Positions 10,098-16,277 of a stretch of 54,831 nucleotides of DNA are shown here, piece after piece. Position numbers and translations under genes: made by a program. The stretch lies in contig VFJJ01000049.1 of NCBI GenBank assembly GCA_009886115.1, positions 1 to 54,831 on the forward strand, given 5' to 3'. Under the pieces are notes generated by a model, which saw only the letters and a program-made list of their open reading frames with translations, ran no database searches and had not been told where the DNA came from. Origin of the DNA: Actinomycetota bacterium. Lineage in GTDB: Bacteria; Actinomycetota; Acidimicrobiia; IMCC26256; VFJJ01. Each line of letters begins with the position of its first letter. Within the stretch, counting starts at the first letter, position 1.

Positions 10098-11108
10098 GTG
10101 AGCGACCTGTCCGGAAGCGACCAGATCGTGGATGATGCGACGGCGGGAGTGCTGCGGGTTCCCGAGCGCATCATTCAGGCTCCGGCTCATCTGAGCCCCC
10201 ACGCCCAGGCAGTGGTGAGCGCGAGCTCCCCTCCCCCCGAGCCGTACCCCCCCATCGACGACAGCCCCGCTTGGAAGCGGCTGATCGCCGAGATGGACGA
10301 GCTGATGCTGCCGATGATGGATGCCATGTCGGCCCACATCGACGCACGCACCACGACCATGGAGATCGAGGGCACCCCGGTGTTCGACATCGAGCCCTCG
10401 TCGATCACCCCCGGCGGTGACGGTCACATCCTGCTCAACTTCCACGGCGGCGCCCTCGTCGCCGGCGGCGGCCCGGGCTGTCGGGCCATGGGCACCCTGT
10501 CGGCCCACCAGGCCGGTCTGCACACCTGGTCCGTCGACTACCGGATGCCCCCCGACCACCCCTACCCCGCACCTCTCGACGACTGCGTCGCCGTGTACCG
10601 GACCCTCCTGCGTGAGCATGCACCCGAGCGGATCTTCGTCTCTGGCGCGTCGGCGGGAGGGAACCTGGCCGCAGCCATGATCGTGCGGGCGCGCGACGAG
10701 GGCCTTCCCCTGCCGCGGGCCGCGATCTTGATGACACCCGAGCTCGACCTCACCGAGTCGGGCGACAGCTTCCAGACGAATCTCGGGATCGACACCGTGC
10801 TGGCCCGGAGCCTCATGCCGGCCAACCTCCTCTACGCCGGGGGCCACGATCTTTCCCACCCCCACGTCTCGCCCCTGTTCGCCGACTTCTCCCTGGGCTT
10901 CCCGCCGACCTTCCTCCAGGCCGGCACGCGCGACCTGTTCTTGTCGAACGCCGTCCGCATGCACCGGGCCCTTCGCACGGCCGGCGTCGCCGCCGAACTG
11001 CACGTCTTCGAGGCCATGCCCCACGGCGGATTCTTCGGCGCCCCCGAAGACGCCGAGATGGCGGAGGCCGTTCGCGACTATGTGCAGCGACAACTCGCGA
11101 TCAGCTGA
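10098..11108 (+). CDS. Alpha/beta hydrolase (HSL-family esterase)
   Basis: HGGA oxyanion motif, VDYRMPP, GASAGG nucleophile elbow and MPHG His. Confidence 0.9.
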   Translation: MSDLSGSDQIVDDATAGVLRVPERIIQAPAHLSPHAQAVVSASSPPPEPYPPIDDSPAWKRLIAEMDELMLPMMDAMSAHIDARTTTMEIEGTPVFDIEPSSITPGGDGHILLNFHGGALVAGGGPGCRAMGTLSAHQAGLHTWSVDYRMPPDHPYPAPLDDCVAVYRTLLREHAPERIFVSGASAGGNLAAAMIVRARDEGLPLPRAAILMTPELDLTESGDSFQTNLGIDTVLARSLMPANLLYAGGHDLSHPHVSPLFADFSLGFPPTFLQAGTRDLFLSNAVRMHRALRTAGVAAELHVFEAMPHGGFFGAPEDAEMAEAVRDYVQRQLAIS

Positions 11109-11141
11109 CGCCGTCAGTTCAGGATCGTGGGCCGCGTCGTG

Positions 11142-11564
11142 TCACTCCCCACCAGGTCGCTGGGCCAGTTGGGCTGCATGAGGTGCGGCACGTTCCTGAC
11201 CAGGAGCCTGTGGAGGGCTGCGCCCCGGGGAGCCGATGCTCACGATGGTCAGCCCCGCCTCGGCGAACCCGTCGACTGTCGGGGCGAGATCGTCACGCCA
11301 CCAACGGGCGATCACCCGACGTAACAACCCGTGCTCGATCGCACCGACCCATGTCTCGGCGCAAGCGTCGGCCTGGGCCTGTACGTCAGCCTCGACCGGC
11401 ACCGGACCATCCGCCCTGGTGTCATCCCACTGCCAGGTCCCGTCGGCCTGACGGGAGTAGAGCCGCACCTCGCACGCCTCGACCCACCACGGAGGTCGTG
11501 CACCGAGCGCACCATCCACAGCCGGCATGGTACCGGTCGCGGACATGACGAACGTGGACGACAC
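11142..11564 (-). CDS. Hypothetical protein of the element; reads through the att core
   Basis: 140-aa ORF directly downstream of another minus-strand ORF; no recognisable motif. Confidence 0.4.
   Translation of the reverse strand: MSSTFVMSATGTMPAVDGALGARPPWWVEACEVRLYSRQADGTWQWDDTRADGPVPVEADVQAQADACAETWVGAIEHGLLRRVIARWWRDDLAPTVDGFAEAGLTIVSIGSPGRSPPQAPGQERAAPHAAQLAQRPGGE
11152..11186 (+). repeat. att core copy 1 (displaced original patA 3' end)
   Basis: ccaggtcgctgggccagttgggctgcatgaggtgc, identical to 14351-14385. The minus strand reads HLMQPNWPSDL-VGSDTTRPTILN* with the stop at 11114. Confidence 0.93.
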
Positions 11565-11574
11565 AGACCGCGAG

Positions 11575-11720
11575 TTACTTCCCGGTGCTCTTCGGCATCT
11601 CAGCCAGCAGCTCGCCGGCCTTGCGTTCAGCTCTGAGCTTCAACTCGGCCCGTTGCGGCACACGCCGGGCGACGGCCCTGGCGACCTGCTGGGCGGTCGG
11701 CTGTGCCCCGTCAGATTCAT
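11575..11720 (-). pseudogene. Fragment of a phage-type protein (ELKLRAERKAGELLAEM motif)
   Basis: Resembles the 'E.kLRAERraGELL' segment I recall from phage proteins; the 5' boundary is approximate. Confidence 0.4.
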
Positions 11721-11805
11721 CGACCGCCTCGGCCCGCGCCTGCGCAGCGACCTCAGGCTGGTTTCGAAGGGTAGCGAGCGGACGGACCTGGCGCTCCGAC
11801 CGGGG

Positions 11806-11839
11806 CTCAGGAATGCCAACCATGGTTGGCATTCCTGAG
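11806..11839. repeat. 34-bp perfect palindrome
   Basis: ctcaggaatgccaacca|tggttggcattcctgag, with no loop. Confidence 0.95.
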
Positions 11840-12248
11840 ACGATGCTGGCGACATGAGTCGTTTGGCATGAGCCCGTTGCATCCCCCAGCGCGATGGTCG
11901 CTGAGTCACAGAACGCCCCCCCATTGATGCCCGACTCGTGGGTGGCGGCGGTGAACACCGGACGCGCCCAGGATGCTCTGAGATCGTGGAACGGGCTCTG
12001 AACGCCCCCGGCGTGCTGGCCGACCTTCAGCTGCTCAAGCTCGAGGAGCACGGCCGTGTGCTGCTTGGCGGTCACCGCCGTCCCGAGACCCTGACCGGCG
12101 TCGAGCGCCTGGGCCAGCACGACCGCCGTCGCAGCGAGGGCCTCCCAGGCGGCGCGATCGTCTCGGCCGTCCTCGACGAGACGACGGAGCGTCTTACGCG
12201 TCGCCCGCTATGCTTCGACGAGATGCCCCGGGACCGGGGTGCTCGGAG

Positions 12249-12609
12249 TCACATTGATGCCGCCCGTCTCGGTGACCACGACCCGGGCTTCGAGGCGTTC
12301 GAGCCCGGCCAGGGCGTCGGCCGGGTTCCACGTGGAACCCCGTCGAGCTCGACGGCGAGGGCCTGCGCGCAGCCGTGGCAGAGGCGCTCGCCCCGGCTCC
12401 AATACGGCGTCACGGCCGGAGGTTCGCCGCAGCCGCAGCAGGTCTCACCTGTCAGCGCTTGGAGCACCGCGGGTTCGTTGGCGAACAGGAGCCGTGCAAG
12501 CTCCAGGGTATCCGTGGTGCCGGACACGACGAGCGCCCCCGTCGGGCTTGACGGACACGCGCAGCCCGGCGGCGGCGGCGTCGTCGGCGAGGGCCTCGGT
12601 CAGCTCCAT
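12249..12609 (-). pseudogene. Small zinc-finger-containing phage-like protein, frameshifted
   Basis: MELTEALADD..GLRVSVKPDG (ATG 12609) joins ALVVSGTTDTLELARLL..TCCGCG..LCHGC after a shift in the G-run near 12536-12540. Confidence 0.45.
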
Positions 12610-12726
12610 TGGTCCCGACCCCCGCTGATGACCTCTAACTGCCCGTTCGTCTCGATGGGTGACGGGGGTTCCGGTTCCCCCCGCGAGAAGCCTCGCGGGA
12701 ATCAACGGGGACCCCTGTCACCCCCG

Positions 12727-12985
12727 TCACTTGGACGCCTTCCCACCGCCGAGCGCCCCCGATCCTCGGACAGATCGGGCCCCCGCAGCGCTCAGCGCCG
12801 CGGCGACTCGGGCCCAGTGCCGCTCTGGCTCGACCGGGACGGCGTTCTCGTCGAGCCATGTGCGATGCAGCGTTTGGAGCTCAGCGGCCAGGACCTCGCC
12901 ATGGGGGTCGAACTCGACGGTGTCGGCGATGAACCGGGCGGCCGTGTCGGACTGGCCTCGGTACTCGGCCGTGGCGGCCCGTCGC
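12727..12985 (-). pseudogene. C-terminal remnant of a P4/D5-type primase-helicase
   Basis: AATAEYRGQSDTAARFIADTVEFDP..V.A.EL...HRTWLDEN resembles the winged-helix tail of P4-family primases; the catalytic domains are absent. Confidence 0.6.
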
Positions 12986-12993
12986 GGAGCGAC

Positions 12994-13365
12994 GTGACAG
13001 TTCTGACGCCCAACAACACCACACCCGCTGATCCGCGGTTCGCGTGGCGATGGATGCGCGGCGATGCGCCATTCGGCGGGACCGTGGGTGATGAGCATCA
13101 GACCCTTGGGAACGAACGCTTCTACTGGGAGGCGTCCCCTGATGTCGAAGATGCCGTCGAGCGCGTGCTGCCTGGCGTGAGAGCGCTTCGCGGGATGGCA
13201 AGCAACTTGGCCTTCGCCGGCGCGATCACGCCCACCAAGGAGAACCCCGACCACCCGCGCGCCCAGGCGCTCCGGGACGTCGCGGAGCTACTCGAGATGA
13301 TGAGCGAGACGATCAAGGGCATGTCGCGGAACGTCAAGCGAATGATGGCGAAGGGGGATTCCTGA
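12994..13365 (+). CDS. Hypothetical protein translationally coupled to the integrase
   Basis: 3' part of ORF 11938..13365; its TGA overlaps the integrase ATG (tgatg). Start uncertain, possibly 5'-truncated. Confidence 0.5.
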   Translation: MTVLTPNNTTPADPRFAWRWMRGDAPFGGTVGDEHQTLGNERFYWEASPDVEDAVERVLPGVRALRGMASNLAFAGAITPTKENPDHPRAQALRDVAELLEMMSETIKGMSRNVKRMMAKGDS

Positions 13366-14310
13366 TGGCCTCGATCGACAAGCGTGACGACGGCACCTAC
13401 CGGGCCCGGTGGCGCGAGTACCCGGGCGGCCCGCAGCGGACGAAGGCCTTTCGCCGCAAGGTCGACGCGGAGCGGCACCTGGTCGAGGTGCAGCACCAGC
13501 TCGCACGGGGCGAGTACCTCGAACCGAAGGCCGGCCATACCCCGTTCGACGCCTACGTCGCGGCCTTCGTTGCCCGGGGCATGTGGCGGGATTCGACGAC
13601 GGCATCGGTGCGGGCCGCGTTGGCGCATGCGGTGCGGGCGTTCGGGTCGCGGCCGCTGGTGTCGATCAAGCGGGCCGATCTCCAGCTGTTCTTGAAGGGC
13701 TTGGAGATGTCCGACGGATACCGGCGGATCGTCCGGCAGCATCTCGGGTCGGTGTTCAACGCCGCGGTGGCCGACCAGATGCTCGCACGGAGCCCGATGG
13801 CCGGTCTACGGCTCGATACGGCCACGACGGCTCCGGTGGTCCCGCCGACGGTCGAGGCCGTGCAGCGGCTCCACGAGGCCGCTCCGGGCTGGTTCCGGGT
13901 CGCGGTGGTGCTCGGCGCCGGGCTCGGGCTCCGTCAGGCTGAGGCGACCGGGTTGACCGTCGACCGGGTCGACTTCCTCCGCCGGACGGCTCGGGACGAT
14001 TCTGCGGGCGCCCGATGGGGAGCCGCTCAACCGGAACCGGTTCGGTGACCTCTGGCGCGCGACGTCGAAGCGGGCCGAGCTCCCGGGGGTCCGGTTCCAT
14101 GATCTGCGGCATCACTTCGCGTCGGCGCTGATCTCGCCCGGATGCTCGGTGAAGGCGGTGCAGTCGGCGCTCGGGCACGAGGAGGCGACGACGACGCTCG
14201 AGACCTACGCACACCTCTGGCCGGAGGACGACGACCGGATCCGCGAGGCGATCGAACGGACCTGGGCTGGATCAGCTGAGGACAAACTGAGGACAAGCGA
14301 GGCCGAGTGA
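13365..14310 (+). pseudogene. int: Tyrosine recombinase/integrase with internal deletion and frameshift
   Basis: N-terminal arm-binding-like YRARWR..F.RK.DA and GLR..E..GL; in another frame after ~13988, RFHDLRHHFAS, LGH and TLETYAHLW to TGA 14310. Confidence 0.9.
14276..14296 (+). repeat. Tandem CTGAGGACAA pair, candidate integrase arm-type sites
   Basis: 10-bp direct repeat with 11-bp period, ~55 bp from the att core. Confidence 0.6.
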
Positions 14311-14342
14311 GCCTCCTGCACCTGCTATGAGCTGCTGTTATG

Positions 14343-15248
14343 TCAGGGTTCCAGGTCGCTGGGCCAGTTGGGCTGCATGAGGTGCCATTGCTCGGGCGCT
14401 TCGCGGATGATGGCCTCGAAGACGTGGGCCATCTCCTGGGTGATGCGGGTGACGTCGTCGCGGAGCGAGCCCTGGCGGCTCACGTCGAGCGCAGGGTGGA
14501 TCACGGAGTACTGGCGGCCGCGGGGACGGGCGAACGTGGCGACGGGCAGGATCTCGACGCCGTGGCGCAGCGCCAGCATGGCCGGGCCGGCGGGCAGGCG
14601 GGTGCGTTCACCGAAGAACTCGACCTCGACTCCGTTGCCCGTGAGGTCGCGATCGGCGACCAGGCACAGGACCCGGCCGGCGTCGAGTGCTCCACGCAAC
14701 ACGGGGAGCACGTCGTCACCGAGCGCCACGACGTCGATGCCGATCGACCGGCGCAGCTCCTTGAACCACTCGAAGAGCTCGGGTGGCTCGAGGGGTTCGA
14801 CCACCGCCGTCAGCCGGTAGCCCTGGAGGCTCACCCAGCGGCCGGCCATCTCCCACGAGCCGAAGTGCGGCAGGGCGAAGATGGCACCGCGTCCGCCGGC
14901 CGTGGCGGCTGCGAGGTGCGCCATCCCGGCCGGATCGGCATCGGCCAGCGCCAGGACCTCGTCGTCGCTCAGATGCGGGAGCCGGAACGAGTCGAGCCAG
15001 TACCGGGCGTAGCCCTCGAAGGTCTCCGTCACGGCTCGGCGCTGTGGAATCGACGCGAGCGCCGACCCGTTGACCCGATCGAGGTGGGCTGCGACGAGCC
15101 GACGCCGGTCGGTCATGGTGAGCGCGAACACGCGGCCGATGCCGAGTGCGAGCGGCTCGGCGATCAGCCGTGGCGTGAGGGCGGCGATAGCGGCTCCCGA
15201 CCGGTAGCCGTGGAACGCCAGCCGGTGCCGCCAACCCATGGTGCTCAT
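14343..15248 (-). CDS. patA: Phosphatidylinositol mannoside acyltransferase
   Basis: YARYWLDSFRLP, ALPHFGSWE, LVADRDL..GVEVEFFG and PEQWHLMQPNW; lies directly downstream of pgsA. Confidence 0.9.
   Translation of the reverse strand: MSTMGWRHRLAFHGYRSGAAIAALTPRLIAEPLALGIGRVFALTMTDRRRLVAAHLDRVNGSALASIPQRRAVTETFEGYARYWLDSFRLPHLSDDEVLALADADPAGMAHLAAATAGGRGAIFALPHFGSWEMAGRWVSLQGYRLTAVVEPLEPPELFEWFKELRRSIGIDVVALGDDVLPVLRGALDAGRVLCLVADRDLTGNGVEVEFFGERTRLPAGPAMLALRHGVEILPVATFARPRGRQYSVIHPALDVSRQGSLRDDVTRITQEMAHVFEAIIREAPEQWHLMQPNWPSDLEP
14351..14385 (+). repeat. att core copy 2 (within the current patA 3' end)
   Basis: Identical to 11152-11186; lies 40 bp beyond the integrase stop. Confidence 0.93.
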
Positions 15249-15294: not shown

Positions 15295-16059
15295 TCAAGG
15301 GCGCGTGCGCAGCCCGCGCGTACCCCGACCACGAGCCACCCGGGCGGCACGTGACGGACGGGGCTGTCGAGGCTGACGCGGCTGCCGGCGGGCACGAGCG
15401 AGCCCGCCCGCGCCGACGGAGCGCTCGCTACGCAGCTCGGCCCGACGGGTCGCACCGACGGTGGGCTGACGCTCGGGCGGCGCATCGGCTTGGCGCCAGA
15501 CCTTGACGAAGCGCTGGATCGCGGTGAAGCCGGTGAGGGCCAGCATCACCCACAGCACCGGCACGAGCAGATCGGTGAACGCCAGCCCCAGCCCGAGCAG
15601 CACCATGCGCTCGGCGCGCTCCATCAGCCCGCCGCGGGCTTCGTAACCCAGGCTCTCGGCCTTGGCCCGCTCATACGAGATGATCTGCGAGCAGCCGAGC
15701 ACGGCGAGGGCGAGGATGGGCGTGTGGCCGCCCTCGGCGTCGGTGAGATACCAGGCAGCGCCGCCGAACATGAGACCGTCGGAAAAGCGGTCGCTCACGG
15801 AATCGAAGAACGCACCCCGCTTGGAGGTCTGACCACTGGCCTTGGCCACGTTGCCGTCGAGGATGTCGGTGACACCGCTCAGGATGAGCGTCACCAACGC
15901 CAAGATCAGGTGCCCGGCCCCGAACAGCACACCGGTGGCCACCGAGGCGACGAGCCCCAGCGCCGTGAGCCCGTCGGGCGAGATCGGGGTGCGACCCAGG
16001 GCTGAGGCCAGGGGCTTGAGGCCCTGTTCGACACCGGCACGCGCTCGGCGGTCGAGCAT
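15295..16059 (-). CDS. pgsA: CDP-alcohol phosphatidyltransferase (phosphatidylinositol-phosphate synthase)
   Basis: DILDGNVAK..GAFFDSVSDRFSD signature and ERAER motif. Confidence 0.9.
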   Translation of the reverse strand: MLDRRARAGVEQGLKPLASALGRTPISPDGLTALGLVASVATGVLFGAGHLILALVTLILSGVTDILDGNVAKASGQTSKRGAFFDSVSDRFSDGLMFGGAAWYLTDAEGGHTPILALAVLGCSQIISYERAKAESLGYEARGGLMERAERMVLLGLGLAFTDLLVPVLWVMLALTGFTAIQRFVKVWRQADAPPERQPTVGATRRAELRSERSVGAGGLARARRQPRQPRQPRPSRAARVARGRGTRGLRTRP

Positions 16060-16277
16060 GCTGTGATTCCTCCTGGCGCTGGGGATCGACCCGAGATCAC
16101 CCGGTGAGACCATCATCGACCGGCGCCGTCGCGGACAATGCGAGCCAGGGTAGTACGGCCCGACCGCAGCCCCCGTGACGAGCCCCCGTGACGAGAGCAC
16201 GTGCTGGTGCCTAGGATCGATCGAGCGTCGATCGTCGTGCACTGACCAGGCCGCTTCGCTCTCGCTGGGAGGACCTC

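Follow-up and report, generated by a model that had tools for sequence, protein, structure and literature searches.

The window analysed here is a stretch of 54,831 nucleotides that makes up an entire 54.8-kb contig from a metagenome bin of an Actinomycetota bacterium (95.6% complete, 224 contigs). At the 3′ end of its patA-like gene, which is predicted to encode a phosphatidylinositol-mannoside (PIM) acyltransferase, the window carries what is very probably the remnant of a site-specific integrative element, now locked and decaying; the element, most likely a small phage-like or phage-satellite island, integrated at this gene end and provided it with a replacement tail. The element is bracketed by an exact duplication of the patA end, the live gene has a restored open reading frame (ORF), the site is empty in a close relative, the tyrosine integrase of the element is broken, and an intact relative of this integrase lies at the same site in another family.

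Duplication of the patA 3′ end

The features that define the duplication are the following.

14343..15248, minus strand: patA-like phosphatidylinositol-mannoside acyltransferase gene, 301 aa, whose last two codons and stop are element DNA
14351..14385, no strand: integrase-proximal copy of the 35-bp attachment-site (att) identity block, at the end of the live patA (100% identity)
11152..11186, no strand: integrase-distal copy of the 35-bp att identity block (100% identity)
11114..11186, minus strand: displaced original patA 3′ end, PHLMQPNWPSDLVGSDTTRPTILN followed by a stop (from translation; 89.6% identical to the empty site of the relative G001 over 48 columns with one 1-nt gap)
11187..14350, no strand: the 3164 bp of element body, which G001 lacks in the empty-site comparison

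The direct repeat CCAGGTCGCTGGGCCAGTTGGGCTGCATGAGGTGC occurs in two 35-nt copies, 100% identical to each other, at 11152-11186 and 14351-14385 with a spacing of 3199 nt, and under a simple composition model about 2.5e-12 such pairs are expected in 7 kb. Read on the minus strand, it encodes HLMQPNWPSDL, the last conserved codons of the PatA-like acyltransferase. An earlier note, made from the letters of the window alone, had described exactly this repeat around some 3.2 kb of DNA, and had also claimed that the live patA ends on element DNA while the displaced copy carries another tail; both descriptions hold. The live ORF terminates in ...WHLMQPNWPSDLEP (tail ...WPSDLEP, then stop), its frame being open and its conserved residues kept. 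The displaced copy has no gene body in front of it and reads ...WPSDLVGSDTTRPTILN to its stop, continuing beyond the repeat as ...SDLVGSDTTRPTILN.

Homology and the context of a phosphatidylinositol-synthase gene identify the live gene as a predicted patA. The protein matches PF03279 (E 1.3e-47) and, over residues 7-293, the Mycobacterium smegmatis PatA chains 5oce, 7ojt and 5f2t of the PDB (E about 2e-48), and the alignment to the mycobacterial enzyme extends to its equivalent ...WHMLQPQWIADL end. Among the loci of 30 relatives, 29 show an invariant ...QPNWPSD at the end of PatA (L009 being the one without a match in the motif search); the tails behind it are unrelated and 3 to about 25 residues long. 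The copy supplied by the element covers exactly this conserved end, and solely the free tail is replaced. Given that the tail behind ...WPSD varies freely among relatives, the swap was probably neutral for PatA.

The empty site in a close relative

Two neighbouring genes frame the site on either side.

15295..16242, minus strand: CDP-alcohol phosphatidyltransferase (pgsA-like) gene upstream of patA (PF01066; syntenic in G001)
10098..11108, plus strand: esterase/lipase-like gene on the chromosomal side of the empty site (PF07859 Abhydrolase_3, E 2.5e-47; DNA 90.9% identical to the G001 gene adjoining patA)

G001, the sole genome of the same genus that was compared, has the pgsA-like, patA and esterase genes contiguous, and thus presents the uninterrupted site in a close relative. 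Its contig matches the window at 15944-15270 and 15259-14354, then at 11186-11140 (89.6% over 48 columns) and then at 11098-10010. In a three-way alignment the chromosomal attachment site (attB) of G001 is a hybrid that corresponds to the live patA junction on the left and to the displaced copy on the right. Together with a second case in the genome G025 (below), the empty site of G001 bears out the proposal of an insertion into the patA 3′ end with a new end supplied by the element. The tail expected for an empty site was VGSD-like, and here the prediction failed: PatA of G001 ends in ...SDRPGE (stop), and the displaced copy of the window is homologous DNA with a 1-nt indel, one base shorter, which gives the longer LVGSD... 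reading. Within its own genome bin the element body is present in a single copy, and its GC content (0.67-0.72) is the same as that of the flanks.

The integrase is a pseudogene

The integrase is split over two frames. Its comparison partner is the intact integrase of G025, a genome from another family of the order.

13365..13991, plus strand: N-terminal part of the integrase pseudogene, with the arm and core-binding domains and the start of the catalytic domain including the first Arg (PF22022; phrog_1 117-321; 43% identity to residues 1-208 of the G025 integrase)
13993..14310, plus strand: C-terminal part of the integrase pseudogene in the +1 frame, with HDLRH, LGH, ETYAHL and the stop at 14308-14310 (PF00589; phrog_1 369-450; 49% identity to residues 266-349 of the G025 integrase)

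The claim that the 3.2 kb end in a tyrosine integrase proved half right: the gene (13365-14310) is present at the patA-proximal end of the element, convergent with patA, but it is broken, lying in two frames with part of the catalytic domain absent. The first frame stays open to about 13991 (...VDRVDFLRRT) and the second runs from 13993 (ILRAPDGEPL...HDLRHHF...LGHEE...ETYAHLW...). The C-terminal piece matches PF00589 with an E value of 8.4e-15, yet it covers profile positions 101-168 of 172 alone, and phrog_1 positions 322-368 are matched by neither piece. Likewise, residues 209-265 of the G025 integrase (PPKTSRSFRTVPL, with the PPKT..R..VPL segment) have no counterpart in the window, where the gap between the two matches is 25 nt. 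This absent segment is presumably the beta-hairpin with the catalytic lysine, judging from the general fold of tyrosine recombinases. The Arg (GLRQAE), HDLRH, LGH and ETYAHL motifs are retained, and no single open frame of the window integrase holds the complete catalytic set. The integrase is a pseudogene that has lost about 50-57 codons and shifted its frame, and the element is a locked remnant.

For an independent view of the lesion, the window was compared with Logan contigs from 4 runs of 3 studies, which are built from 31-letter words and cannot resolve a 35-bp repeat. Three further runs, drawn from three studies, also have contigs with the lesion (X2 13524-14093, X6 13829-14084 and X4 12632-14380), the X4 contig crossing it without any compensating insertion. 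Because the identical lesion is found in three other runs, it is not an assembly slip of the bin.

An element that is still mobile at patA, either through its own integrase read across the frameshift or through an integrase acting in trans, would fit the 100% identity that both att copies still have over 35 bp, and also the frequency of related integrases in the order. It is hard to reconcile with the missing codons of the catalytic domain and the frame shift, which are shared with a variant of about 98% identity from another study. Moreover, the 95.6%-complete genome has no second integrase of the family at E<=1e-30, the single match being the window's own, and searches of the window element against Pfam, PHROGs and NCBIfam recognised neither an excisionase nor a replication gene. 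We therefore regard continued mobility as very unlikely.

The patA 3′ end is used again in another family

Within an order-level comparison set of 264 genomes, 220 contain a degenerate QPNWPSD pattern. It is duplicated, with spacing, on one contig in three cases: the window, G025 (a distance of 9934 bp) and G012 (2005 bp). Candidate att duplicates in G002, G141 and G211 were rejected, each of these genomes having a pair of full-length patA genes that lie on separate contigs.

In G025 a 29-bp repeat brackets an element of about 9.9 kb at the same patA codons (L036:1650-11590, on a 60-kb contig). Its integrase is intact (366 aa), convergent with patA and homologous to that of the window (43-49% identity). 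The element further encodes excisionase-like (HTH_17), AAA_25/primase-like and small-terminase-like proteins, as well as a prohead protease, a capsid protein of the HK97 type and a WhiB-like regulator; large terminase, portal and tail genes were not recognised in it. The live PatA of G025 ends in ...SDRDGRH (stop), whereas the displaced copy ends in ...SDRPSNDGGADDAGARG (stop), like the native tail of the sister genome G005. G005 is empty at this site, with the sequences of G025 positions 1-1655 and 11580-13057 adjacent to each other. An element at the same codons in G025 and the empty site in G005 mark the patA 3′ end, by sequence comparison, as a genuine and reused attB.

A putative 2-kb insert in G012 (L035:1287-3316) lies between two copies of the patA end (25 bp, one mismatch), between patA and a glycosyltransferase family 4 (GT4) gene; this 2-kb stretch contains no integrase remnant and has no Pfam match. 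A GT4 pimA-like gene follows patA in both G012 and G025, in the latter behind the displaced patA copy, so that the two inserts (2 and 10 kb) separate patA from the pimA-like gene within the PIM cluster.

In the genus g45 the patA end is followed by two to four tandem units of 75-77 bp (L037:1831-2061 in G124, L038:1740-2046 in G125 and L039:4754-4881 in G118). Each unit consists of the last ~16 patA codons (MAPEQWHLMQPNWPSD) and about 29 nt that include an inverted copy (TGCTCGGGGGCC) of the first 12 nt of the unit. The last unit of an array has a differing tail, and the array has a strong fold (z -4.5). Two of the 75-bp units in G125 keep the reading frame, which leads to a predicted PatA with the motif three times. 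Such an array might represent a scar of integration that unequal crossover has enlarged, or else a small hairpin element located at the gene end.

Tandem patA-end copies in another genus, with no integrase between them, might be taken to mean that in the window, too, local duplication of the patA end, or its gene conversion, gave rise to the repeat, and that the integrase is there by chance. We give this explanation hardly any credence. In both the window and G025 the integrase adjoins the restored gene end in the same tail-to-tail arrangement; the repeat sets precise limits to the insert, which G001 lacks; and two sister-pair comparisons share one breakpoint.

Targets of the integrase family

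Homologues of the G025 integrase at E<=1e-30 are present in 104 of the 264 genomes. Seven unpublished genomes (G048, G049, G091, G092, G112, G113 and G242) are counted in this tally and in that of the motif; they also provide two rows of the integrase tree (L064 and L068) and one of the three tRNA-Val adjacencies mentioned below. The main claims are independent of these seven genomes.

A tree of the N-terminal 208 residues of 29 integrases contains a supported clade of six (96/95), comprising the window, L072 and L073 (from metagenome-assembled genomes, 52% identity), G057 (L044), G025 (L042) and G005 (L043). Two of the six are located at patA. The G005 integrase, which is 72% identical to that of G025, converges on a thiolase-like gene.

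The expectation that homologues would consistently sit beside patA was not borne out. The patA motif lies next to the integrase in one of 30 loci of the order, in none of three genome_contigs loci and, one chance frame aside, in none of 80 metagenome loci, in which the downstream DNA is often short (at least 400 nt in 64 of 92). Many homologues are instead found at the 3′ ends of other protein genes. The 23 convergent downstream ORFs that were scanned include four YchF, four glutamine synthetases and one each of M48 peptidase, sigma-70, thiolase-like and PmbA/TldD proteins, while six had no match. The ychF ends are those of L105, L126, L132 and L148 and the glnA ends those of L071, L110, L117 and L128; the remaining ones belong to L092 (M48 peptidase, htpX-like), L129 (sigma-70), L043 (thiolase-like) and L131 (PmbA/TldD). 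Integrases and housekeeping genes stand tail to tail here, mostly within about 40 nt (103 nt in L092 and 152 nt in L129). These loci suggest a set of protein-gene attB sites in Actinomycetota. Genes for tRNAs are near the integrase in only three of the 30 order loci, all of them tRNA-Val, and in three of the 80 metagenome loci. As housekeeping-gene 3′ ends are common and tRNA genes rare beside these integrases, use of the ends of protein genes is common in this group, with patA as just one of many targets.

Related integrases were also found in IMG/VR, at 34-41% identity on seven contigs, four of which are only 10-16 kb long. In the 6 kb by the integrase, three of these four (L155-L157) have only regulation, replication and head or packaging genes, in varying sets drawn from repressor, excisionase, replication, large terminase, portal and protease-capsid functions, and the fourth (L158) gave no PHROG match. 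L155-L158 could be capsid-forming satellites of Actinomycetota or prophage fragments. In sequenced phages, the nearest relatives of the G025 integrase come from actinobacteriophages (Arthrobacter phage TripleJ and phages of Gordonia, Rhodococcus and Mycobacterium), yet they are only 31-35% identical; 24 of the 28 records cover at least 80% of the query. Two degenerate patterns for a patA-end attP, the attachment site of a free element, had no hit in IMG/VR, and when 50,697 phage records were searched by tblastn with the 31 C-terminal residues of PatA (E<=10), no mimic of the patA end was returned.

It is possible, and we put it forward tentatively, that the patA 3′ end is a recurrent attachment site in the order for capsid-encoding, satellite-like islands, and that the integrase clade has repeatedly been retargeted among housekeeping 3′ ends (patA and the thiolase-like gene, and more widely ychF, glnA and the htpX-like gene), each time with a matching replacement end. 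The PIM operon of most families has this site between patA and the pimA-like gene. On this reading, a live element would also have to keep the downstream pimA-like gene expressed, and the 75-77-bp arrays of g45 would be scars of the same traffic.

Decayed content of the element

Apart from the integrase, the element contains the following features.

11142..11564, minus strand: 140-aa ORF crossing the att copy in a different frame (unmatched in Pfam, PHROG and NCBIfam)
11575..12120, minus strand: 181-aa ORF (no Pfam, PHROG or NCBIfam match)
11806..11839, no strand: perfect 34-bp palindrome, self-matching on the opposite strand (as a DNA hairpin, -19.5 kcal/mol, z -4.3)
12249..12705, minus strand: overlapping ORF pieces in different frames, one with CxxC...CxxC (no family match above noise)
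12727..13254, minus strand: ORF with a weak resemblance, over its last ~70 residues, to the C-terminus of P4-family primases (all matches below curated cut-offs)
13195..13365, plus strand: 56-aa ORF with a 1-nt overlap between its stop and the integrase ATG (TGATG; no Pfam match)

The element body is thus decayed as well, with overlapping frames and only a C-terminal primase-like scrap. The pieces at 12249-12705 are probably one frameshifted gene. The ORF at 12727-13254 matches phrog_6088 (681-746 of 772, E 0.0018), NF011296 (376-448 of 469, E 0.0015) and TIGR01613 (249-298 of 304, E 0.066), which hints at a primase-like gene whose remainder would be missing. The 56-aa ORF may have been a small regulator or directionality factor of the original element. 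As to the palindrome (CTCAGGAATGCCAACCA/TGGTTGGCATTCCTGAG), it could be an operator, an origin or a terminator.

The variant mentioned above, which is about 98% identical and assembled from another study (X4), carries the integrase deletion of the window and differs from it by indels at 12193, 12341-12539, 12576 and 12665. In this order, its changes are a 1-nt insertion, the replacement of 197 nt by 37 nt, a 9-nt deletion and a 17-nt insertion. This variation points to ongoing decay after an old inactivation.

Proposed history and its weighing

From the comparisons above we infer the following recombination mechanism, order of events and phage-satellite ancestry. A tyrosine integrase would have recombined attP with the last 11-12 codons of patA, the attP carrying 35 bp that replicated the patA end and, behind them, two codons and a stop of its own. 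Integration would have kept the ...W-H-x-x-Q-P-N-W-P-S-D motif and exchanged the non-conserved tail for L-E-P (stop), and the original patA end would have been pushed 3.2 kb away, beside the esterase gene. After insertion, the integrase would have lost about 50-57 codons, including the presumed catalytic-lysine segment, with a shift of frame, and other genes of the element would have been deleted or frameshifted, so that autonomous excision would no longer be possible.

Several points weigh against this history. The displaced tail differs from G001 by the 1-nt indel, so the tail that the window lineage had before the insertion is not fixed by G001. No read or contig bridges either 35-bp junction; the Logan contigs all end inside the repeat, and therefore the integrated arrangement rests on the bin assembly. 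Finally, the nature of the ancestor is weakly based, as the elements of the window and of G025 have only the integrase in common and the primase-like match lies under every curated cut-off; a search for longer proteins resembling the 12727-13254 ORF found none. A tblastx comparison between elements gave mostly high-GC noise and counts here for the integrase match only.

The second of these points bears on the idea of an assembly artefact, in which a free circle sharing 35 bp with attB was threaded into the empty site. Contigs of 31-letter words cannot separate the two states and all break in the repeat, and the genome is a metagenome bin of 224 contigs. However, within each run flank, element and patA side have similar depths (e.g. 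5.7, 4.6-7.0 and 5.2 in X1), a circle would be unlikely to persist when its integrase is dead and no replication gene can be recognised in it, and G025 shows the same integrated arrangement on a 60-kb contig. A contig joint that skips the element is not listed among the Logan contigs, though their 31-letter words cannot tell such a state apart. The chance of an artefact is in our view slight.

The third point concerns ancestry. The remnant might derive from an actinomycete integrative and conjugative element (AICE) or an integrative and mobilisable element (IME) and not from a phage or a satellite of one: it occurs in an actinobacterium, the integrase alone connects the window with the phage-like element of G025, and scraps of P4-type primases occur in plasmid-like elements too. 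An AICE is expected to have an FtsK/SpoIIIE-like transfer protein and a Rep protein, and no element ORF of at least 50 aa, in any frame, matches FtsK/SpoIIIE-like/Tra, Rep, relaxase or Nudix-type proteins. In addition, the cargo near related integrases consists of head-module and replication genes (G025 and the 10-16-kb IMG/VR contigs), and the closest named integrases are those of the actinobacteriophages. We consider an AICE or IME origin unlikely, while granting it some weight, and retain a phage-like or phage-satellite island as the probable ancestor.

Comparison with known systems

Islands that sit in genes for tRNA and tmRNA split their target and regenerate it, and the regenerated target and the displaced fragment mark their ends, as set out for Islander (PMC4383910). 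The patA element resembles this model in that its integrase adjoins the regenerated target. It differs in having a protein-coding target, and there is no tRNA gene within the element or its flanks, nor in most loci of its relatives (27 of 30 and 77 of 80). The premise that tyrosine integrases usually target tRNA or tmRNA genes, from which the earlier note had started, is too strong: of about 1.75 million islands reported from TIGER/Islander, 43.4% are in coding sequences and 33.8% in tRNA/tmRNA genes (PMC12424338). Prophages of Bifidobacterium integrated in dnaJ2 (PMC6109161) are likewise at a protein-gene site in actinobacteria, with another gene and other hosts.

Phage-inducible chromosomal islands (PICIs) have an integrase, a regulator, replication genes and packaging or capsid-redirecting genes in about 10-15 kb. 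The G025 element, at about 10 kb, has such a set, comparable also to that of capsid-forming PICIs, and is satellite-like in its genes. The window element, at 3.2 kb, lacks this set; of a G025-type gene content it keeps only the broken integrase and the doubtful primase scrap.

The copy in the window is a fossil and of little importance in itself. What it adds is that patA, a core gene of phosphatidylinositol-mannoside synthesis, joins the protein genes used as integration sites, the conserved C-terminal motif being the part that elements copy and the tail behind it being free to change. The integrase clade, with close relatives at differing housekeeping-gene ends, is a natural data set on target change and might yield site-specific tools for Actinomycetota that are uncultured and poorly studied. 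A full-text search found no publication that names patA as attB, although the TIGER/Islander tables, which were outside that search, may list it; the words "acyltransferase" and "patA" are absent from the main text of a survey of Mycobacterium prophages (PMC10654092).

The closest parallel is the icd gene of Escherichia coli, into which phage 21 and e14, two lambdoid examples, are integrated. As described in PMC10111431, icd is a well-known prophage site, and the rule of a replacement sequence holds for tRNA and protein genes alike. The icd prophages and islands share with the patA case a tyrosine integrase acting in a housekeeping gene, an attP that brings the replacement end, a gene that stays functional and a displaced fragment at the far end (PMC10111431). 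In contrast, target, host phylum and integrase lineage differ, and the patA case has an identity block of only 35 bp and a dead remnant. The mechanism is thus known and the target patA is new, which makes this a new site for, and not a new kind of, system.

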